64,000 nucleotides of DNA from assembly GCA_944359055.1 (NCBI GenBank), contig CALVSO010000002.1, positions 5,935 through 69,934 of the forward strand, written 5' to 3'. The notes under the pieces were generated by a model. The model saw only the letters and a list, made by a program, of their open reading frames with translations, had not been told where the DNA came from and made no database searches. Shown here piece by piece: positions 8,030-28,211 of the stretch. A program made the translations under genes and the position numbers. Source of the DNA: an uncultured Bacilli bacterium. Its GTDB lineage: Bacteria > Bacillota_I > Bacilli_A > RF39 > UBA660. Position 1 is the stretch's first letter, and the number at the start of each line of letters is the position of its first letter.

Positions 8030-10192
8030 ATGAAAAAGAAATTGTGGGGAGTATGGGAACTGGAAGAAAAGATAGGAACCGGTTCTTTTGGGACAGTTTA
8101 TAAAGCTAGGAAAACTGAATTAGGAAAAGATTTTTATGCTGCTATAAAACATATTTCTTTTCCTAAAGATGAGGAAGAATTAGAAGAAATAAAAAGAGAA
8201 GGAAATGTAATTTCTATTGATAGTATAAGAGATTATTATAAAGATACAATTGATGATTTGATAAAAGAAATAGAAATAATGTATGAATTACGTGCTAATA
8301 AGAATATAGTTGATTATCAAGATCATTTAATAATTGAAAAAGAAAATAAATTAGGCTATGATGTTTACATTAGAATGGAATTATTAACTCCTTTAGATAA
8401 ATACATAGAAGGTAATAAAATCGATGAGGAATTAGTAACAAAAATAGGTGTTGATATATGTCAAGCATTAGAAGTATGTAAAACTCATCATTTACTTCAT
8501 CGAGATATCAAACCGGCAAATATCTTTGTTGATGATAATGGTACATTTAAATTAGGTGATTTTGGTGTTGCTAAAAAATTAGAAAAAACAACTCTTAACA
8601 TGAGTAAAAAAGGCACGTTTAATTATATGGCACCTGAGATTTATAAAGGAAAAATTGCTGATATTAGAAGTGATATTTACTCATTAGGAATTGTTATGTA
8701 TCGCTTATTAAATAATAATAAAGCACCTTTTATTGATAAAAATATGACATTAGTTAAAGCATCTGATAATGAAACAGCTTTAATGAAAAGAATGTCTGGA
8801 GAATTAATTCCTCCTATAGAAGGTATAAGTCAAAAACTTCAAACTATAATATATACCGCTTGCAGTTATGACAAAAATAATCGGTATGATGATCCTGATA
8901 TAATGCGAAAAGATTTATTAAAATCAGATGATAAATATGAAAGAAAATTTTCTGATGAGTATGACAAAACAGTATCAATTTATGAAGATTATGATAAAAC
9001 AGTATCGATTTATGATAAAGAAACACCAAATGAAAAAAATATTAAAGCAGATTTATTTATACCTAATAATTCTGATGATGAACTAAGAGATAGAATAAGA
9101 AGAATAATTGAAGAAGAAAGAAATAATGAAAGACCAAAATATGATGTTGAGGTTTATTATGAACAATTAAATAAAAAAATGCCATTATTAAGTTTTTTAT
9201 TATCCTTTGCTTTAGCAATTTTACTATTTGTACCTATATCATATGTGGTAAATTTAACAAATTTAAATTATGATATAATGGATATTATGTATAATAGTGA
9301 ATTGTTTAAAAGTGAAATAGGTATATTAATAGTGTTTTGCTTTATAACTTTAGTAGCATTTTTAATATCTATAACAGGTAAAAAACAATATAAAAATTCT
9401 AAAAAATTATATATTATAAATATGATATTATTAATTATTCAAGCAATTTTATTTTATAATAAAAGATTTAATGTTAATGTATTATATATTTGTTATTTTA
9501 TAATTACATTTATTTTGTATATTCTTCCATATAAATGGAATTTAAAATTAGAACAATTAAAAGTTGAAAAAGATAGTATTGATTATTATAAAGAAAAAAA
9601 TAAAAAATTAAATCAAATTTACAATAAAGAAGAAAAAGTAAATAAAAAAATCTACATATTTATAGGATTACTTTTTGTTGTTTCTATAACATTTGCATTT
9701 TTACCTTTTGAAAGTCAAAGTAATAAAAATTTAAAAGATAATTATGTGAAAATTATAACTGATTATATAAATTTAAGAGATGAACCATCATATTCAGGTG
9801 ACATAATTGGAATAGTTTATCAAGATGAAGTTTATAATATTTTAAGTAGTATAGATTCTAATAAAATTGTTTGGTATGAAATTGAAATGGAAAATGGCAA
9901 AAGAGGATATTTAACTAGTGGCTATAATCATGAATATATAGATGCTATAATAAAAAACAAACAAGTTGATAGGTTAGAGGTTATAAATGATTATATTAAT
10001 GTTAGAGAAGACGCTAATACAACATCTAATAGTTTAGGACAAGTTTATAAAGGAGAACAATATGATATTTTAGAAATAATCAAAGGGGATTATTATTATT
10101 GGTATAAAATATTATACGATGGTAAAGAAGCTTATATAGCTAGCCCAAAAGGTAACGAATATGTAAAATTAATGGGTGATTATAATGATTAG
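8030..10192 (+). CDS. Eukaryotic-like Ser/Thr protein kinase: N-terminal kinase domain, 5 TM helices, two C-terminal SH3b (SH3_3) domains
   Basis: Hanks motifs: GTGSFGTVYKA...AIK (ATP site), HRDIKPANIFV (catalytic loop), DFG and APE. Hydrophobic helices in aa ~385-545. Two copies of the NVR-x-PS-G...WYEI SH3b pattern. Confidence 0.85.
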   Translation: MKKKLWGVWELEEKIGTGSFGTVYKARKTELGKDFYAAIKHISFPKDEEELEEIKREGNVISIDSIRDYYKDTIDDLIKEIEIMYELRANKNIVDYQDHLIIEKENKLGYDVYIRMELLTPLDKYIEGNKIDEELVTKIGVDICQALEVCKTHHLLHRDIKPANIFVDDNGTFKLGDFGVAKKLEKTTLNMSKKGTFNYMAPEIYKGKIADIRSDIYSLGIVMYRLLNNNKAPFIDKNMTLVKASDNETALMKRMSGELIPPIEGISQKLQTIIYTACSYDKNNRYDDPDIMRKDLLKSDDKYERKFSDEYDKTVSIYEDYDKTVSIYDKETPNEKNIKADLFIPNNSDDELRDRIRRIIEEERNNERPKYDVEVYYEQLNKKMPLLSFLLSFALAILLFVPISYVVNLTNLNYDIMDIMYNSELFKSEIGILIVFCFITLVAFLISITGKKQYKNSKKLYIINMILLIIQAILFYNKRFNVNVLYICYFIITFILYILPYKWNLKLEQLKVEKDSIDYYKEKNKKLNQIYNKEEKVNKKIYIFIGLLFVVSITFAFLPFESQSNKNLKDNYVKIITDYINLRDEPSYSGDIIGIVYQDEVYNILSSIDSNKIVWYEIEMENGKRGYLTSGYNHEYIDAIIKNKQVDRLEVINDYINVREDANTTSNSLGQVYKGEQYDILEIIKGDYYYWYKILYDGKEAYIASPKGNEYVKLMGDYND
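8960..9019 (+). repeat. Tandem 30-nt repeat (2 copies) encoding YDKTVSIYED / YDKTVSIYDK in the kinase juxtamembrane linker
   Basis: Direct repeat read from the sequence. Confidence 0.6.
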
Positions 10193-10874
10193 AAAATGTT
10201 ATTTCGTAAGTAATAAAGGTAATAGAATAAATAATGAAGATAAATTTCAAATCAATAATTTTTCATCTGTTGGCAAAGATGAAATGGGTAAAAAAATAAT
10301 CTTAAATAATGCTTTAATTACTGTAAGTGATGGCATGGGTGGCGAAGAATATGGAGAACTTGCTTCGTTAATTGTTACTAAAGAATTAGCTAGATTATAT
10401 AATAAAAAATTAAATACTAAAAAAATGTTAGAAAATATAATTAATACTAATAATTTAGTCGTTTCAAAAATGAATGAAAAAAAATGTAGGATTGGGGCAA
10501 CATTAGTAAGTGCAATTATTAAAAAAAATACTATTGATATCTACAACGTTGGTGATAGTAGAGCTTATTTATATTCTAATAAATTGATTCAACTAACAAA
10601 AGATCATGCTACTAATAATGGACTAACGCAACATATGGGAATGAATGTAGAAGATGGAGTAATAGAACCTTTTGTTATTGAAAATATAAGTATTAAAAAG
10701 AATGATTATTTATTGTTATGTAGTGATGGTCTTTATAATATGGTAAATAATGAAGAAATTGAAAAAATATTAAATTCAAAACAAAAAGAAATGAATAAAT
10801 GCCAAAATTTTTTAGATTGTGCTTTAAAAAATGGTGGAAAGGATAATATTACATTTTTATTAATAAAGTTTTAG
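10185..10874 (+). CDS. PP2C-family Ser/Thr protein phosphatase
   Basis: VSDGMGG and CSDGL motifs, about 230 aa. Overlaps the kinase 3' end. ATG 10185 preferred over the GTG 10176 used by the track. Confidence 0.8.
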   Translation: MIRKCYFVSNKGNRINNEDKFQINNFSSVGKDEMGKKIILNNALITVSDGMGGEEYGELASLIVTKELARLYNKKLNTKKMLENIINTNNLVVSKMNEKKCRIGATLVSAIIKKNTIDIYNVGDSRAYLYSNKLIQLTKDHATNNGLTQHMGMNVEDGVIEPFVIENISIKKNDYLLLCSDGLYNMVNNEEIEKILNSKQKEMNKCQNFLDCALKNGGKDNITFLLIKF

Positions 10875-10883
10875 GTGGTATAT

Positions 10884-13217
10884 ATGGATGAATACGAAAA
10901 AACAGTCAGTTGTTATGAAGATAAAAAAATTAAGATAGAAAGTAATGAATCATTTTATTTAACAATTATAAATGATGATAAAATTGAAACTTATAATCTA
11001 AATGATTTTAATTCTTCTCAAATAACTTTTGGAAGAAAAGATGATAATGATATTGTTATCGATTCAATGTTGATATCTGGTCATCATGGTTATTTTAATA
11101 TAGTTGATGATGAAATATATATTATTGATGATAACAGTACTAATGGAATATTTTATAATGGTAAAACAATAAAAGAGCAAAAACTTTCTGATCGTGATAT
11201 TTTTAAAATTGATAATCCTAAAGAGCCCTTAAATAAAGGGGTTATGTTTATTTTGTCTTTAAATGAAAAAAAAGTAAATTGGGATTCTTATGATTTAAGT
11301 AAAAAAGAAACTATAACAATAGGAAGAGATAATTCATGTGATATTGTTTTAAGACATGTTGGTGTTTCTAAAAAACATGCGATTATAACGAAAAAAGATA
11401 ATAAATATTTTATTAAAGATAATGATAGTACTAATAATACTTCAGTTAATGGTGAAATAATAAGTAATCAAATTAAATTAAAAGAAAAAGATGTAATATT
11501 AATTACTAATTCATTATTTATCTATTCATTTGGAAGACTTATTTATCAAACTTTTAATGAAGGTGTAAAAGTTGAAGCATATGATATTGTAAAAACAGTT
11601 GCTACTAAAGGTGGAACTAAAGATATTTTAAAACATATTAGTTTAGAGATTAAACCTTCTAATTTTGTTGCCTTAGTAGGAGGGTCTGGTGCTGGTAAGA
11701 GTACTTTCATGAATAGTATTAGTGGTTTTTCTAAACCAACAAGTGGTAATGTGTTAGTTAATGGTGTTGATTTATATGATAATTATTCAGTATTAAAAAA
11801 TATAATTGGATATGTTCCTCAACAGGATATAGTTTATACAAATCTAAGACTTTATGATATGTTAAAATATGCTGCTGATTTAAGGATGCCTGAAGACTCA
11901 ACTGATGAGGAAAAGGAAATCCAAATAGCTAAAGTTTTAGATATAGTAGATTTAACAGAACATAAAGATACTTATATAAGAAAATTATCAGGTGGTCAAA
12001 GAAAACGAGCAAGTATAGCGGTAGAATTGATAGCAGATCCAACTTTATTTTTCTTAGATGAACCAACAAGTGGTTTGGATCCTGGTACTGAAAGAAGTAT
12101 TATGAAAACACTAAAAAACATGTCTGAATCAGGAAAAACTGTAATATTAGTTACTCATACAACATTGAATTTGCACTTATGTGATATGGTTGTTTTTATA
12201 GGTCGTGGTGGTAAATTATGTTTTGCTGGAAAACCAAATGATGCGTTAAAATTTTTTGGAGTATCTGATTTTGTTGATATTTATACATATATAAACAATG
12301 ATTCAGATAGTTGGAATAGTAAGTTTTTAAATTCAGAGTATTATAATCCTGTTTTTGAAAAACAAACTGAAAGAGTAGATGATACTACTAATGTTAATAA
12401 AAAATCTTTTATAAAACAATTTATTACTTTAACAACAAGATATTTAAAATTAATAATAAATGATAAACAACGATTAGCGCTTCTTTTATTACAAGCTCCA
12501 ATTATTTCATTTTTATTAAGTTTAGTTACTAATAGTGGTGTTTTTAAAAATTATGATGATACAAAAGCAATATTATTTTCTTTATCATGTTCTTGTATTT
12601 GGTTAGGAATTTTAAATTCAATTCAAGAAATATGCAAGGAAAAAGTTATTTTAAAAAAAGAATATATGGCTGATTTGAAGTTATCGTCATATATATGTTC
12701 CAAATTAATTGTCCAGTCTTTATTAGCATTTATTCAATCATTTATATTAATAACTGTTTATGCTATGTTAGTTGAATTTCCATCGGAAAGTTTAATAATA
12801 AATCCTTATTTTGATTTTTTAATTATTTCAACAATAACAATTATTTCTGCAGCAAGTTTAGGAATATTAATATCTAGTATTGTCAAAGATGCAAATATAG
12901 CAATGTCAGTTGCTCCATTAATTTTAGTTCCACAATTATTATTTTCTGGAATGTTATTTGAACTTAAAGATTTTTCTTCTTTTATTTCTAATTTTGTATT
13001 ATGTAGATTTAGTGTTTCAGCTTTGGGTACCACTTTAGATTTAAATAACATGCCTAATAAGATTTTTGTATTAGGATTTGTAAGAGAAGCCGAAGATTAT
13101 TTTAATTATACTTCTAGTCATTATTTTATTATGCTATTAGTATTACTTGGTATGAGTTTATTAATGATAATTGGTTCATATATAGTTTTAAGAAAAGAGT
13201 TAGATAATAGAAAATAA
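10884..13217 (+). CDS. ABC exporter with two N-terminal FHA domains, an ABC ATPase domain and a 6-TM ABC-2 permease (Rv1747-like architecture)
   Basis: FHA signatures: ITFGRK...GHHGYF...STNGIFYNG and ITIGRD...VSKKHA...STNNTSVNG. Walker A GGSGAGKST, signature LSGGQRKRASIA, Walker B LFFLDEPTSGLD, six C-terminal TM helices. ATG 10884 behind RBS aggtgg; the track used GTG 10875. Confidence 0.85.
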   Translation: MDEYEKTVSCYEDKKIKIESNESFYLTIINDDKIETYNLNDFNSSQITFGRKDDNDIVIDSMLISGHHGYFNIVDDEIYIIDDNSTNGIFYNGKTIKEQKLSDRDIFKIDNPKEPLNKGVMFILSLNEKKVNWDSYDLSKKETITIGRDNSCDIVLRHVGVSKKHAIITKKDNKYFIKDNDSTNNTSVNGEIISNQIKLKEKDVILITNSLFIYSFGRLIYQTFNEGVKVEAYDIVKTVATKGGTKDILKHISLEIKPSNFVALVGGSGAGKSTFMNSISGFSKPTSGNVLVNGVDLYDNYSVLKNIIGYVPQQDIVYTNLRLYDMLKYAADLRMPEDSTDEEKEIQIAKVLDIVDLTEHKDTYIRKLSGGQRKRASIAVELIADPTLFFLDEPTSGLDPGTERSIMKTLKNMSESGKTVILVTHTTLNLHLCDMVVFIGRGGKLCFAGKPNDALKFFGVSDFVDIYTYINNDSDSWNSKFLNSEYYNPVFEKQTERVDDTTNVNKKSFIKQFITLTTRYLKLIINDKQRLALLLLQAPIISFLLSLVTNSGVFKNYDDTKAILFSLSCSCIWLGILNSIQEICKEKVILKKEYMADLKLSSYICSKLIVQSLLAFIQSFILITVYAMLVEFPSESLIINPYFDFLIISTITIISAASLGILISSIVKDANIAMSVAPLILVPQLLFSGMLFELKDFSSFISNFVLCRFSVSALGTTLDLNNMPNKIFVLGFVREAEDYFNYTSSHYFIMLLVLLGMSLLMIIGSYIVLRKELDNRK

Positions 13218-13299: not shown

Positions 13300-14124
13300 A
13301 TGTCAAAGTTTTATACAGCAAAATATGAATCAGTTTTTATGTATTCAGCAGTAAAACATCCAAAAATATTAAAAAAATTAATTGAACAAATATTAAATAA
13401 AAAATATAATGAATTTATTGTATTAAATCCTAATTTAATAAAAGATAATATACATAATATAGGTCAGAAATTAGATTTATTAATTAAAGCAAATGATGAA
13501 TATATAAATGTAGAATTAAATTCTAAATATAACAAATACATAAAAGAAAGAAATTTATTATATGTATTTAAGTTATGTTTGGATAAAAGTGAAAAAGATA
13601 AACAAACATTAAAGGGTAATGTTAGGCAAATAAATATAAATTTTGGAAGAAAAAGTAAAGGAATAGAAGATATAGCGGTAGTAAATTTAACTGATAATAA
13701 AAAATTGACAACAAAAATAGAAATAAAGAATTTAAATGTAGACTTTTATACAAAAAAATATTATAATAATTATAAGTTAACAAAAGAAGAAGAGTTATAT
13801 ACTATGTTAGGATTAGCATTAGAAGAACTAGAAAAATTAAGTGAAAGGAATGATATAGTGAAAGAATTTAAAGAAAGTGTAGAAGAAGCTAATAAAGATG
13901 AATTAGTAGTAAAATGGTTTACTCCAGAACAAGAACGAGAAATGCGAGAAAATTATATAAAAAGTGAAGCTGAAGAAAAAGGTATGAAAAAAGGAATAAA
14001 AAAAGGTAAATTAGAAGGAATATTGCAAACTGCTAAAAATATGCTAGAAGCAAACATGAATATTGAAACAGTATCAAAATTAACTGGTTTATCTGTAAAG
14101 AAAATAAAAGATATGTTACTATAA
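13300..14124 (+). CDS. Rpn family recombination-promoting nuclease / putative transposase (PD-(D/E)XK, YhgA-like)
   Basis: N-terminal FMYSAVKHPKILKKLIEQIL...LDLLIKANDEYINVELNS core. C-terminal KGMKKGIKKGKLEGILQ...ETVSKLTGLSVKKIKDML tail typical of the family. Strong RBS aggagg. Confidence 0.6.
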   Translation: MSKFYTAKYESVFMYSAVKHPKILKKLIEQILNKKYNEFIVLNPNLIKDNIHNIGQKLDLLIKANDEYINVELNSKYNKYIKERNLLYVFKLCLDKSEKDKQTLKGNVRQININFGRKSKGIEDIAVVNLTDNKKLTTKIEIKNLNVDFYTKKYYNNYKLTKEEELYTMLGLALEELEKLSERNDIVKEFKESVEEANKDELVVKWFTPEQEREMRENYIKSEAEEKGMKKGIKKGKLEGILQTAKNMLEANMNIETVSKLTGLSVKKIKDMLL

Positions 14125-17004: not shown

Positions 17005-17523
17005 ATGAAAAAATTAATATTGATTATTTTTTTAATTATTTTGTTTTATGAATGTATAGGGCATGTGTCTAGTTTAGCTATTCCTGATGATGCTTTAAGA
17101 ATTAGAGTTATTGCTAATAGTAATTCAGAGTATGATCAAGAAATCAAAAAAATAGTAAAAGAAAATATTCAATATAAAATGTATGAACTATTAAAAAATA
17201 CTAAAGGTGTAGATGAAGCAAGAAGAATTATTAATAATAATTTAGATAATATTGAAGATGATGTTAAAACTACTTTACAATTATTAGATTATGAATTAGG
17301 ATATGATATTAATTTTGGATTAAATTACTTTCCTAGTAAAGAATATAAAGGAATTACTTATGATGAAGGTTATTATGAGTCATTAGTTATTACATTAGGA
17401 GAAGGTAAAGGTGATAATTGGTGGTGTGTTTTATTCCCTCCTTTATGTTTATTAGAAGCAGAAGAAAGTACTGAGGTAGAATATACTTCATTTGTAAAAG
17501 AACTACTAGATAAATATTTATAA
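17005..17523 (+). CDS. spoIIR: Stage II sporulation protein R (SpoIIR)-like signalling protein
   Basis: Signal/TM N-terminus. LRIRVIANSNSEYDQEIKKIVKE and GDNWWCVLFPPLC match conserved SpoIIR blocks. ATG 17005 behind RBS aggtga. Confidence 0.65.
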   Translation: MKKLILIIFLIILFYECIGHVSSLAIPDDALRIRVIANSNSEYDQEIKKIVKENIQYKMYELLKNTKGVDEARRIINNNLDNIEDDVKTTLQLLDYELGYDINFGLNYFPSKEYKGITYDEGYYESLVITLGEGKGDNWWCVLFPPLCLLEAEESTEVEYTSFVKELLDKYL

Positions 17524-17553
17524 ATTATGCTATAATGTATTTAGGGTGGTAAT

Positions 17554-20055
17554 ATGATTCGAGAAGTAGAAAATGGAATAACAAAAATTGATGATAGAGT
17601 AATTGAGAACAATCAAATAAAAAGTGTAAAAATACCAGAAAGTGTAGTAGAGATAGGTAAATGTGAATTTAGTACTAAGAGAATAACGAAAGTGGAAATA
17701 GCAGAAGGTGTAACAAAAATTGGACCCTGGGCATTTGCGAACAATTTAATAACAAGCATAAGAATACCAGGAAGCGTAGTCGAAATAGGCGAAAGTGCAT
17801 TTAGACGTAATAAAATAACGAAAGTAGAGATAGCAGAAGGTGTAACAAAAATTAGATCCCTAGCATTTGAGGACAATCAAATAACAAGTGTAATAATACC
17901 AGAAAGTGTAGTTGAAATAGGCAGGAGTGCATTTGAGAATAATCAAATAACAAGCGTAATAATACCAAGAAGCGTAGTTGAAATAGGCGAAAGTGCATTT
18001 AAGCACAATCAAATAACAAGCGTAATAATACCAGAAAGCGTAGCCAAAATAGGTTATAGTGCATTTGATCACAATCAAATAACAAGTGTAATAATACCAG
18101 AAAGCGTAGTCGAAATAGGTGAATTTGCATTTAGAAACAATCAAATAACAAATGTAAAAATACCAGGAAGTGTAGCCAAAATAGGGTATGGTGCATTTAT
18201 GGGTAATCAAATAACAAGTGTAATAATACCAGAAAGCGTAGTCGAAATAGGTGAATTTGCATTTGAGAATAATCAAATAAAAAGTGTAAAAATACCAGAA
18301 AGCGTAGTCAAAATAGGCAAAAATGCCTTTTGTAATAATCAAATATCGGAAATAGAAATAGCAGAAGGTGTAATCGAAATAGGCTTTCTTGCATTTTTTG
18401 ATAATCAAATAACAAGCGTAAGAATACCAGAAAGCGTAGCTAAAATAGGCAAAAGTGCATTTGCTCACAATCCGTTAACAAATATTTATCTTCCTAAAAA
18501 GATATCAACAGTTTCTATGAGTTCATTTGATGATTGTAATTTAAAAGAAATGACTTTTTACAGTACATTAAAAAACATATCAAGTGATTACAATTATTCC
18601 GATAATAGTTTTCGTGAAATAGAAGAAATTACAATAATAGAAGCGGATTATAAATATTTAACTTATTTTGAAGAAAAAATGTTAGGATTTTTTCCTAATG
18701 TAAAAAAAATAAATTTAAAAAATTTCTTGGTAGATTTATTTGATGTAAAAGAGGTGAATTTTTCAAATCCAAATGTAAAAATAAATATTCAAAACGTTAT
18801 TATAGATAATAGCGGTGTAAAAAATATAACAAATAAATTTAACTTATCTCAAGAAACTTTAGAATTAATTATGCAAATTTATGAAGCAATCAATTTATTT
18901 CCTGTCAAAAAACAAATAGAAGCGGCTTTCATTTTAAAAGAGATAATTAATAACTATGAAAAAAATATTTCTAAGAATGAACCTCAATTTGATTTAAAGC
19001 AAACCTCAAACTTTTCATTAGAAGTTGATAATAAAGATTTAAAAAGTATAGAAATTCAAATGATTGTTTCTCTTCAATCTTTGCTTTATAATTTGAATAG
19101 CCAAAGTCAATCCATAAAAGATTTAGAAAAACTAAAAAAATATATTAATATATTGAAAGAACTAGAAGAACCTGATAATGATATTGAAAATAAGATAAAA
19201 AAAATTTTAGAAATTTCTAAAAAACTAAATTTTGAAAAAAGTAGTGACTACTTAAAAGATTTGATTTCTAAAACTGAACAAGAAATTGTATCTTCGATTA
19301 ATTTTGATTTGTCGATAAAATTAGTATATACAGATTGTATTTTAGAATTGGAAAATAAAATTAATAATATGTATGAAAAATATAGTCAAATATGGAAAAA
19401 AATCAAACCATATTTCGAATTGAAAGAACAGTTAACTAAAGGTGATTTTGCCAACATTAAGGAAATTAAAAATGTCTTAAATAGGTTAGACAGTTTCACG
19501 AAAAACAAATATGACAAAATTTTAAATAAATTAGAAGAAGACTTTATTACAAAAATTAATGATTGTATAGAAATAACAAAAAATAATAAGGAAGCTGATT
19601 CGATTAATGAATTGAAAACGGAATTTAAAAATCAATTAAATCCAATTTTGGTTGAACTAAAAGAAGATGCTTTGAAATATGAAAGAAATGGTAAATTATT
19701 GAATGAGCTTAAGCAATCTTTAAATATATTAAAAAACGAAAATGTAGATGAAGTCGATGGCTCTATATATGAAACAGTTGTTGATATTAAAGGATTAACT
19801 CAAAATTTAAATAAAAATGAAAGAGAACAAACAAATTTAGAAGTAGAAAATATTATTATTAAATGGTTAAAAATTGTACAAGAAAATAATTACGGGGAAT
19901 TAGTAAAAAAATATAAAGAAGAAAGACCTGATTTAGAAATATCTAATTCTATATTAATAGTTCACTTAATAATATTAGATGATTTATTAAAAGTAAAAGA
20001 TTATATTAATTCATATTTAGAAAATAAAAAAGAATATGATAGTTTTAAAAAATAG
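17554..20055 (+). CDS. BspA-type leucine-rich repeat (LRR_5) protein with a long K/E/N-rich coiled-coil C-terminal half. No signal peptide.
   Basis: About 14 tandem 22-aa repeats I[TK]SVxIPESVVEIGxxAFxxNQ, then about 520 aa of low-complexity helical sequence. Confidence 0.75.
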   Translation: MIREVENGITKIDDRVIENNQIKSVKIPESVVEIGKCEFSTKRITKVEIAEGVTKIGPWAFANNLITSIRIPGSVVEIGESAFRRNKITKVEIAEGVTKIRSLAFEDNQITSVIIPESVVEIGRSAFENNQITSVIIPRSVVEIGESAFKHNQITSVIIPESVAKIGYSAFDHNQITSVIIPESVVEIGEFAFRNNQITNVKIPGSVAKIGYGAFMGNQITSVIIPESVVEIGEFAFENNQIKSVKIPESVVKIGKNAFCNNQISEIEIAEGVIEIGFLAFFDNQITSVRIPESVAKIGKSAFAHNPLTNIYLPKKISTVSMSSFDDCNLKEMTFYSTLKNISSDYNYSDNSFREIEEITIIEADYKYLTYFEEKMLGFFPNVKKINLKNFLVDLFDVKEVNFSNPNVKINIQNVIIDNSGVKNITNKFNLSQETLELIMQIYEAINLFPVKKQIEAAFILKEIINNYEKNISKNEPQFDLKQTSNFSLEVDNKDLKSIEIQMIVSLQSLLYNLNSQSQSIKDLEKLKKYINILKELEEPDNDIENKIKKILEISKKLNFEKSSDYLKDLISKTEQEIVSSINFDLSIKLVYTDCILELENKINNMYEKYSQIWKKIKPYFELKEQLTKGDFANIKEIKNVLNRLDSFTKNKYDKILNKLEEDFITKINDCIEITKNNKEADSINELKTEFKNQLNPILVELKEDALKYERNGKLLNELKQSLNILKNENVDEVDGSIYETVVDIKGLTQNLNKNEREQTNLEVENIIIKWLKIVQENNYGELVKKYKEERPDLEISNSILIVHLIILDDLLKVKDYINSYLENKKEYDSFKK
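17605..18481 (+). repeat. Array of about 14 near-identical 66-nt tandem repeats encoding the LRR units
   Basis: Visible nucleotide-level periodicity (ataacaagygtaataataccagaaagcgtagtygaaatagg...). It generates spurious antisense ORFs. Confidence 0.8.
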
Positions 20056-20102
20056 TATTGCTTACTATTTTTTTTTATTATATAATTGATATGGTGAGAA
20101 TT

Positions 20103-27752: not shown

Positions 27753-28211
27753 ATGGAAAAAATTGATAACATTGCGAAATGGTTTATAAATGAAATTTCT
27801 CCAGACCCATTAAAATTGCAAAAATTATTATATTTTGCGCAAGGTATTTCATTTTGTTTTAATGATGAAGAATTATTTGACGAAGAATTAGAAGCTTGGG
27901 TTCATGGACCTGTTAATAGTAATATATATTTTAAATATCGTGAATATATTTACAATCCAATAAATTTAAAATATCAAATTCCAAATTTTTCTCAAAAAAC
28001 ACTTCAAGTGTTAGAGTATGTGCGAGATAATTATGGCAAATATGATGCAAAATATTTAGAAGAAATAACTCATAATCAATATCCATGGCAGTTTGCAAGA
28101 GAAGGATTAGATCCAGATGAACGAGATAATAAAATAATTCCTAAAGAGGTTATTGCTGAATACTTTGTTAGCCTCATGTTACAACCAAATAGTGAGGAAT
28201 GGGATAAATGA
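27753..28211 (+). CDS. Panacea-domain (DUF4065, SocA-like) antitoxin
   Basis: MEKIDNIAKWFI...PLKLQKLLYFAQGISFCFNDEELFDEELEAWVHGPV is the characteristic DUF4065/Panacea N-terminal block. Confidence 0.7.
   Translation: MEKIDNIAKWFINEISPDPLKLQKLLYFAQGISFCFNDEELFDEELEAWVHGPVNSNIYFKYREYIYNPINLKYQIPNFSQKTLQVLEYVRDNYGKYDAKYLEEITHNQYPWQFAREGLDPDERDNKIIPKEVIAEYFVSLMLQPNSEEWDK

Follow-up and report, generated by a model that had tools for sequence, protein, structure and literature searches.

BspA-type leucine-rich repeat (LRR) proteins are nearly always assumed to be surface adhesins; what, then, might a small family of them without an export signal be doing? We address this question for one gene of an uncultured Bacilli bacterium, which lies between spoIIR and tilS in a 64,000-nt stretch of contig CALVSO010000002.1 (assembly GCA_944359055.1, positions 5,935 to 69,934), hereafter the window. 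At this locus we observe an unusual architecture, no export signals, hypervariability with sharp edges, presence or absence between strains, changes in repeat copy number and conversion tracts. We tentatively favour, at somewhat less than an even chance, the reading that the gene encodes a variable-specificity binding protein whose external partner changes fast; its LRR surface would be the specificity determinant and a helical rod an oligomerisation or docking module.

A hypervariable gene at a fixed site

The open reading frame (ORF; Table 1) is a real gene. The same 833-aa product, letter for letter, was assembled on 6 contigs that come from two projects; the form with 15 repeat units is therefore reproducible. 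Both neighbours were identified, spoIIR upstream (Pfam Spore_II_R, 133 bits) and tilS downstream, in agreement with the first-pass annotation, which a model had made from the sequence. The order pdp-cinA-spoIIR-[LRR gene]-tilS-ftsH recurs at related loci L001, L002 and L008, all from the closely related, very AT-rich gut-type bacteria that host the gene. At L003 the 3' end of spoIIR is again directly upstream of the LRR gene; downstream (L003 2384-2582) stands not tilS but unrelated DNA that starts with a terminator-like hairpin, so this locus has been rearranged.

Comparison of these loci shows that divergence is confined to the LRR gene. Between L002 and the window, pdp/cinA/spoIIR and tilS are 92–99% identical in DNA while the LRR gene is only 60–75% identical, with one edge of the divergent segment no more than a few codons from the start and the other in the final ~150 nt of the gene (19813-19962, 81%). 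The proteins follow the same pattern: 96–100% identity in the flanks against 50% for the LRR protein in L002, 98% against 43% in L003, and 87–96% (tilS 87%) against 41% in L008. Over the relatives as a whole, flank proteins are 94–100% identical (tilS in L008 87%) and LRR proteins 41–53%. By the Nei-Gojobori method the LRR gene has a synonymous divergence (dS) of 0.73–0.90 and a non-synonymous divergence (dN) of 0.32–0.38, compared with dS of 0.09–0.24 and dN of at most 0.02 in flanks of the same species; the dN/dS ratio is ~0.43 in the LRR gene and 0.05–0.16 in the flanks. It follows that the alleles are much older than their flanks, or imported, and are not merely the outcome of drift.

An empty site was recovered by a metagenome pattern scan using the conserved 3' end of spoIIR. 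In this relative, L009, the flank proteins are 95–98% identical to those of the window and spoIIR runs straight into the tilS leader (L009 4900-4960; ERZ1643251 NODE-1998): the tilS ORF, read from its upstream TTG, opens 8 nt after spoIIR, with 53 nt before the likely ATG. Because the more distant L008 has the LRR gene, a deletion is the simplest account of L009, and an empty site means that the gene is dispensable. The locus is thus a sharply bounded, hypervariable, presence/absence gene, a feature that had escaped the first-pass annotation. As to tilS itself, the listed ORF in the window begins at TTG 20058; the gene calls in L001 and L008 agree with ATG 20103, and a TTGCTT...TATAAT promoter-like pair in 20056-20102 is kept in L009.

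Variation within the repeat array

Pfam assigns the N-terminal part to LRR_5 (PF13306, the BspA type) with E=9.6e-81 and 268.4 bits against a cut-off of 27.7, in four stretches over aa ~20-350, which bears out the BspA-type assignment of the first-pass annotation. The array consists of a truncated unit, 13 regular units and then degenerate units. Tandem Repeats Finder reports a period of 66 with 13.0 copies over 17603-18463 (score 660, 71% matches), but periods 132 and 198 score higher, which suggests that blocks of two and three units were duplicated. A description of the units as near-identical was too strong: the 22-aa register does hold throughout aa 21-306, but pairs of units average 70% DNA identity (range 41–94%), and no exact in-register repeat exceeds 60 nt, the length found at offset 132. 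Core positions 2, 7, 11, 14 and 19 of the unit are invariant; positions 6, 12, 16, 17, 20 and 21 are hypervariable and hold most of the variation.

Units within the window allele share a mean identity of 54% (maximum 95%) and resemble units of other alleles far less (37–40%, maximum 59%), which points to lineage-specific unit amplification. The GC content of the array, 0.31–0.32 over 17500-18500 against 0.21–0.23 on either side, comes from the codons of conserved Pro, Gly, Ala and Ser. Recent horizontal acquisition judged by composition was rejected, as the helical part of the gene has the local GC of 0.21 and the bump is limited to array codons. The long antisense ORFs that had been predicted to be spurious are periodic read-throughs of the array.

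Differences among near-identical alleles were examined in a cluster of seven members at >=90% identity. Copy number does vary, as had been expected from the repeats: the L010/P0030 allele is 745 aa long with 11 units instead of 15, having lost four units in register, and is otherwise 99.4% identical (778/783 outside the deletion). The 9-nt overlap at its junction seems too short to explain a collapse of the de Bruijn graph. More distant alleles have from ~2–3 to ~7 recognisable units. Three members of the cluster start inside the array or just after it and resemble assembly breaks, from which we conclude that the array is hard to assemble. The earlier concern about an assembly artefact is legitimate in view of these three, although the 833-aa form was recovered unchanged on separate contigs.

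A second kind of polymorphism affects the reading frame. In the L001 lineage an A7 tract is A6 (L001 5827-5841), and the resulting truncated C-terminus is common to P0001, P0027 and P0029, which come from three separate contigs. This frameshift may represent a natural null or a phase-like variant. Homopolymer and repeat-number polymorphism, by which contingency loci are recognised, are thus both observed among near-identical alleles; a change by 66-nt units alters the length of the protein, not its frame.

Seven codons of the array differ between the window and L001 alleles (99.1% identical); all seven changes are non-synonymous, and they fall at unit positions 5, 6, 16, 17, 20 and 21. The ratio of non-synonymous to synonymous changes (N:S) is 8:2 in the LRR gene, compared with 32:62 when eleven flanking genes are counted (Fisher p=0.012). 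Two of the multi-nucleotide differences recreate strings of 21–24 nt found in neighbouring units, which argues for gene conversion between units. Mutagenesis of the type caused by diversity-generating retroelements was dropped as a candidate: the strain differences are not adenine-specific, and no reverse-transcriptase domain was found in the ~25 window ORFs scanned with Pfam, the annotation covering the window up to 37 kb.

Could all this divergence reflect relaxed constraint only, in a gene that is decaying or near-neutral? Loss of the whole gene, a frameshifted lineage and the raised dN/dS relative to the flanks would fit. On the other hand, intact ORFs of 635–833 aa are kept in every allele class despite a GC of 19–26%, the helical domain is a coherent fold predicted with confidence from 16 sequences that share 22–51% identity, and within the LRR units scaffold positions are invariant, with exposed positions alone varying. 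We consider decay highly improbable.

Table 1. Position of the gene, its parts and its polymorphic sites in the window; aa, residues of the 833-aa protein.
Feature	Position	Strand	Residues	Remarks
ORF with LRR_5 head and novel helical domain	17554..20055	+	833 aa	exact protein on 6 public contigs
Truncated first LRR unit	17554..17613	+	aa 1-20	without signal peptide
13 regular 66-nt / 22-aa LRR units	17614..18471	+	aa 21-306	register QITSVIIPESVVEIGESAFxxN
Degenerate LRR turns and beta/alpha cap	18472..18813	+	aa 307-420	conserved across alleles (alignment A1)
Conserved all-helical domain	18814..20052	+	aa 421-833	predicted 14 helices, serial three-helix-bundle-like packing; no known family
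Block of 264 nt (4 units) missing in L010/P0030	17794..18057	+		in register; 9-nt microhomology AGTGCATTT
A7 tract, A6 in L001 lineage	19905..19911	+		frameshift; 793-aa product without the conserved terminal helix
Segment absent from L009	17525..20047	+		promoter-like box and nearly whole ORF; 3-nt AAA microhomology at junction
Putative extended -10-like box TGcTATAAT	17528..17536	+		promoter scan, consensus match only; in 30-nt spoIIR-LRR spacer
Ribosome-binding site GGGTGG	17544..17549	+		4 nt before ATG; kept in L001-L003; read from sequence
Spurious antisense ORF	17613..17876	-	87 aa	periodic translation; one antisense unit frame without stops
Spurious antisense ORF	17860..18468	-	202 aa	22-aa periodic YFDYAFWYYYTCYLI-type translation; array only

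Absence of export signals

An in-frame TAG (17542-17544) lies 4 codons 5' of the ATG, making an N-terminal extension impossible. Revision of the start codon to reveal a signal peptide, which the first-pass annotation had named as a possible refutation of its own view, is thereby ruled out. The N-terminus (MIREVENGITKIDDRVIENN) is hydrophilic and has no hydrophobic core, in contrast to that of SpoIIR, encoded immediately upstream, which is positively charged, hydrophobic and classical-signal-like. On inspection of hydropathy and motifs the 833-aa protein has no transmembrane (TM) segment, LPXTG motif or lipobox (Cys); the maximum 19-residue Kyte-Doolittle score, 1.62, is reached within an Asp-containing helix of the bundle. 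Nor is there a surface-anchoring module (LPXTG, choline-binding repeats, a C-terminal domain of the type IX secretion system, or TM), and Pfam finds LRR_5 only. No signal peptide was seen in any homologue with its N-terminus present (~23 of 29 listed), so what had been noted for one protein extends to its relatives.

These observations bear on the conventional explanation, in which the protein is a classical BspA-like surface or secreted adhesin or antigen that leaves the cell by an unrecognised route and varies to escape immunity or phages. It shares the LRR_5 fold with PcpA (4cp6) and with Bacteroides and Faecalibacterium 'cell surface' LRR proteins, and ancient allelic diversity, in-frame repeat loss, homopolymer frameshifts and paralog mosaics are all typical of surface antigens. 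Most BspA-like proteins of Trichomonas likewise have no predicted TM domain or signal peptide (PMC2843621). Nevertheless, none of the ~23 members whose N-terminus is present shows a signal peptide, a lipobox, a TM segment, an LPXTG motif or a wall-binding module, and no secretion-system genes lie nearby. Similarity to the NCBIfam HupY/LrrG model (NF047961) is partial: the score is 174.9 bits where the cut-off is 1250, and only the LRR is covered; the Listeria-type internalin model (NF033189) gives 39 bits against 1600, again with no signal peptide. The protein belongs to the LRR_5 repeat class but falls outside the definitions of the BspA/PcpA/HupY adhesins and of the internalins. We therefore hold an exported adhesin to be unlikely, though a view with real weight.

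A conserved helical domain of no known family

The LRR part was previously thought to be followed by a 500-aa coiled-coil tail, and this did not survive modelling. An AlphaFold2 model of the full protein (4 sequences; predicted local distance difference test score, pLDDT, 72.6, with aa 160-400 at 80–95) has a beta-solenoid and cap that run to ~aa 420 and is all helical thereafter; strands are predicted as far as aa 418, interrupted by a single helix at 366-379 (pLDDT 65–93). In place of the tail, AlphaFold2 thus predicts ~100 aa of degenerate LRR and cap, then a 410-aa bundle of several helices. Modelled separately with 16 family sequences, the helical domain reaches a pLDDT of 86.3 and shows 14 helices of 10–43 residues that are separated by loops and folded back on one another. 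It would accordingly form a bundle or rod and not one continuous coiled coil.

Structural searches recognise only the first module. With Foldseek, the LRR part alone matches 4fs7, 4cp6 (PcpA), 4fd0, 4gt6 and 4h09 at a probability of 1.00, with E-values of 1e-8 to 1e-5 against BspA-type crystal structures. A sequence search of the PDB agrees, nothing being matched past aa 348, and a sequence-profile search of the PDB with the helical domain returned nothing at E<0.2. Pfam, NCBIfam, PADLOC and PHROGs recognise the LRR part alone and give no match to the helical domain. SH3BP5, KMP-11, CNOT1 and DUF5767 were rejected as relatives, being sub-threshold compositional matches. No relatives of the helical domain were found in phages or plasmids (tblastn), IMG/VR or BFVD, and the PHROG matches concern the LRR only; a phage or plasmid origin was set aside for want of a tblastn match or an IMG/VR relative.

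When 16 divergent helical domains (22–51% identity) were aligned, the invariant and near-invariant columns were hydrophobic or aromatic, plus one Pro and one Asn, and no Cys, His, Ser, Asp or Glu was conserved across them. This speaks against an enzyme, and the protein is apparently non-catalytic.

Relatives at other loci

The helical domain is rare. A word-indexed search found 3 matching proteins among 5.8 billion, and an exhaustive HMMER scan found 23 among 1.84 billion representatives. A profile search of the 5.8-billion set added only P0014 and P0024; its word filter saturates on AT-rich sequence, and the family loci are extremely AT-rich (19–28% GC). One match lies in a metagenome-assembled genome labelled 'uncultured Bacilli bacterium'. 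Almost all of the relatives recovered have N-terminal LRR_5-like units, from ~1–2 up to ~15, the exceptions being P0014, which keeps only the cap, and P0015, which has no Pfam-detected LRR_5. A literature search on LRR_5/PF13306 found no paper describing this combination of LRR_5 and a helical domain, and within the window there is no paralog of either module.

Members at L004-L007 sit in different neighbourhoods, with no sporulation genes on the stretches examined. L004 (GCA_964600615.1, 3653-10220) carries three tandem paralogs between potABCD/ygjV-like genes and genes for speD, ornithine carbamoyltransferase and agmatine deiminase. These copies are mosaic, with blocks of 97–100% identity beside blocks of 55–78%: copies a and b are 97–100% identical over nt 900-1800, and b and c 99% over the first 150 nt. 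L005 has three adjacent full-length copies; a preceding 508-aa ORF, cut by the contig end, was not assigned to the family. A distant member, P0017 (L013 1174-3717; 847 aa), has an extra C-terminal extension of ~200 aa, and the extension of P0017 and P0022 has no Pfam or PDB match. The P0017 gene lies upstream of a radC-mreC-...-M23/M50 (spoIVFA/FB-like)-rplU-rpmA-obg cluster. The family may be confined to spore-formers.

Expression and the link to sporulation

The LRR gene starts 29–30 nt after spoIIR (33 nt in L008) in all five related lineages examined, and no terminator lies between the two genes, so read-through from spoIIR is possible. The spacer contains a promoter-like box whose form TGnTATAAT is kept in L001-L003 and also in the divergent L008, where the spacer downstream of it has diverged. 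The unrelated family loci L014 and L013 have a similar box 17–25 nt ahead of the ATG. Taken together these give a weak indication of a vegetative-type (sigma-A-like) promoter rather than one for a sporulation sigma factor, against a scan background of 46 promoter-like sites where 45.5 are expected in DNA of 21–23% GC. Inspection by eye revealed no motif resembling those of sigma-E, -K, -F or -G.

A role in sporulation or as a scaffold had been suggested from the position of the gene. In a specific form of this idea the protein is co-transcribed with spoIIR, or laid on the spore from the mother-cell cytoplasm; an 'adhesin' deposited in that way needs no signal peptide. Coat and exosporium proteins have no signal peptides and evolve fast, and besides the conserved adjacency to spoIIR there is the L013 member near spoIVFA/FB-like genes. 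But L009 keeps spoIIR and tilS with the LRR gene cleanly lost, the L004-L007 members are found in the other settings described above, and the upstream box looks sigma-A-like, no promoter motif of a sporulation type having been recognised. For these three reasons the link to sporulation rests on position only, and we regard a spore-surface protein as quite improbable.

A variable-specificity binding protein?

How might the protein work if it is indeed a binder of variable specificity? We picture a non-enzymatic protein of two modules, made without a Sec signal. The first would be a BspA-type LRR_5 beta-solenoid of ~18 turns, on which the exposed positions 6, 12, 16, 17, 20 and 21 form the variable recognition surface; the second, the conserved ~410-aa helical-bundle rod, would be the constant module, with a probable role in oligomerisation, docking or spacing. 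The gene would be an accessory locus under arms-race, diversifying or balancing selection, and its specificity could change by three routes: (i) whole 66-nt units are gained or lost, (ii) units are converted by one another, or (iii) recombination in the spoIIR and tilS flanks, which are nearly identical, replaces an entire allele. Occasionally the gene would be inactivated by frameshift or deleted. The LRR face may bind a fast-changing foreign partner, such as a phage, host or competitor molecule, and the protein would act from the cytoplasm or get outside only by a non-classical path, e.g. lysis.

Several points weigh against this proposal. The excess in N:S rests on 10 changes, some of them in conversion tracts and so not independent, and with dS near saturation in DNA of 21–23% GC a dN/dS of ~0.43 cannot prove positive selection. 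The absence of a signal peptide was judged from hydropathy and motif inspection, not with SignalP. The gene lies in a core housekeeping region and not in a defence or pathogenicity island, and PADLOC-DB 2.0 returned 0 defence families at E<=0.1 for the five family members tested. Finally, all characterised bacterial LRR_5 proteins are, to our knowledge, exported, which would make a cytoplasmic role atypical.

A narrower explanation is an intracellular sensor or decoy of the innate-immunity type, directed against phages or mobile elements, in which the LRR recognises an invader protein and the rod oligomerises to block it. The gene is signal-less, accessory, hyper-divergent, present or absent between strains and found in paralog arrays, all of which would suit such a sensor. 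Cytoplasmic bacterial LRR domains do exist (Chlorobium Roco is among the PDB matches), and an antitoxin-like SocA_Panacea ORF lies 8 kb away. Yet the protein carries no effector domain, be it an NTPase, a nuclease, a TIR or any other, it matches no PADLOC model, the gene is not in a defence island and the helical domain has no invariant polar residues. LRR sensors are also rare among the bacterial defence systems described so far. A sensor or decoy in this strict sense seems to us distinctly unlikely.

On a larger scale, these proteins could constitute an unrecognised family of germline-variable cytoplasmic recognition proteins, sensors or decoys resembling those of innate immunity, in ultra-AT-rich spore-forming Bacilli; we think this improbable. 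That such a family would diversify by shuffling of LRR units, paralog mosaicism and balanced allelic polymorphism is a conjecture to which we give the same small credence.

The population signature seen here (divergent alleles at a fixed site, presence/absence, unit change, conversion and mosaics) is usually that of antigens, receptors and immunity genes, and this family couples the LRR_5 repeat to an undescribed helical domain. Its target, if identified, would reveal one of two things: a new non-classical route by which proteins reach the cell surface or the spore, or else, in uncultured gut Firmicutes, an intracellular recognition protein of a new kind. In practical terms the locus can serve as a marker for strain typing, and it is a known trouble spot when short reads are assembled.

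Surroundings in the window

The window is an origin-proximal core region with dnaB, parAB, ssb and a ribosomal-protein operon. Among its ORFs of >=150 aa, 50/52 are on the + strand, and the GC skew is positive over the profiled 12–26 kb. In the 64 kb no match to Rfam attains the gathering score of its family, nor was any tRNA or ribosomal-protein leader found. A cluster at 8030-13217 encodes a Ser/Thr kinase bearing SH3_3 domains at its C-terminus, a PP2C phosphatase and an ABC transporter fusion that combines two FHA domains with an ABC ATPase and an ABC-2 permease. Two ORFs stand out in the otherwise housekeeping region, one transposase-like of the PD-(D/E)XK class (PDDEXK_2; 13300-14124) and the SocA/Panacea antitoxin-like one (27753-28211).

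Comparison with known systems

With the BspA-type LRR_5 proteins (Tannerella BspA, pneumococcal PcpA 4cp6, S. agalactiae LrrG/HupY, and the gut Bacteroides/Firmicutes proteins 4fs7, 4gt6 and 4h09) the window protein has in common the repeat of 22–23 residues and the solenoid fold. These relatives carry signal peptides or anchors; the window protein carries none and has in addition the 410-aa helical domain, which occurs in none of them. Signal-less proteins of the BspA type are common in at least one eukaryote, Trichomonas vaginalis, whose BspA-like family shows great structural diversity and comprises 911 proteins, 193 of them with a TM domain (PMC2843621). That family belongs to a eukaryote and lacks any counterpart of the helical domain; kinship is limited to the LRR class.

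In architecture the closest systems are Shigella IpaH and Salmonella SspH-SlrP, which likewise join an N-terminal LRR specificity head of variable length to a conserved all-helical module, occur as paralogs and have no Sec signal; IpaH9.8 is among the Foldseek matches, through its LRR. The NEL domain of IpaH/SspH, however, has a catalytic Cys (CxD) and a fold of its own, whereas the 16 aligned domains of the present family share no conserved Cys and give no Pfam NEL match. Matches of the helical domain to EzrA (4uxv), an I-BAR domain (2d1l) and designed 3-helix bundles cover 80–218 of 414 residues at 5–13% identity and are generic, not homology. A sensor or decoy family would follow a logic like that of plant nucleotide-binding LRR (NLR) receptors or variable lymphocyte receptors (VLR), without a known effector domain.

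Finally, the alpha C/Rib proteins of group B Streptococcus, PspA/PspC and the M proteins are repeat-variable surface antigens that are Sec-exported, wall-anchored or choline-bound, and built from non-LRR repeats. What the gene between spoIIR and tilS shares with these Gram-positive antigens is its mode of variation: in-frame change of repeat units, ancient alleles at a fixed locus with conserved flanks, and mosaicism.

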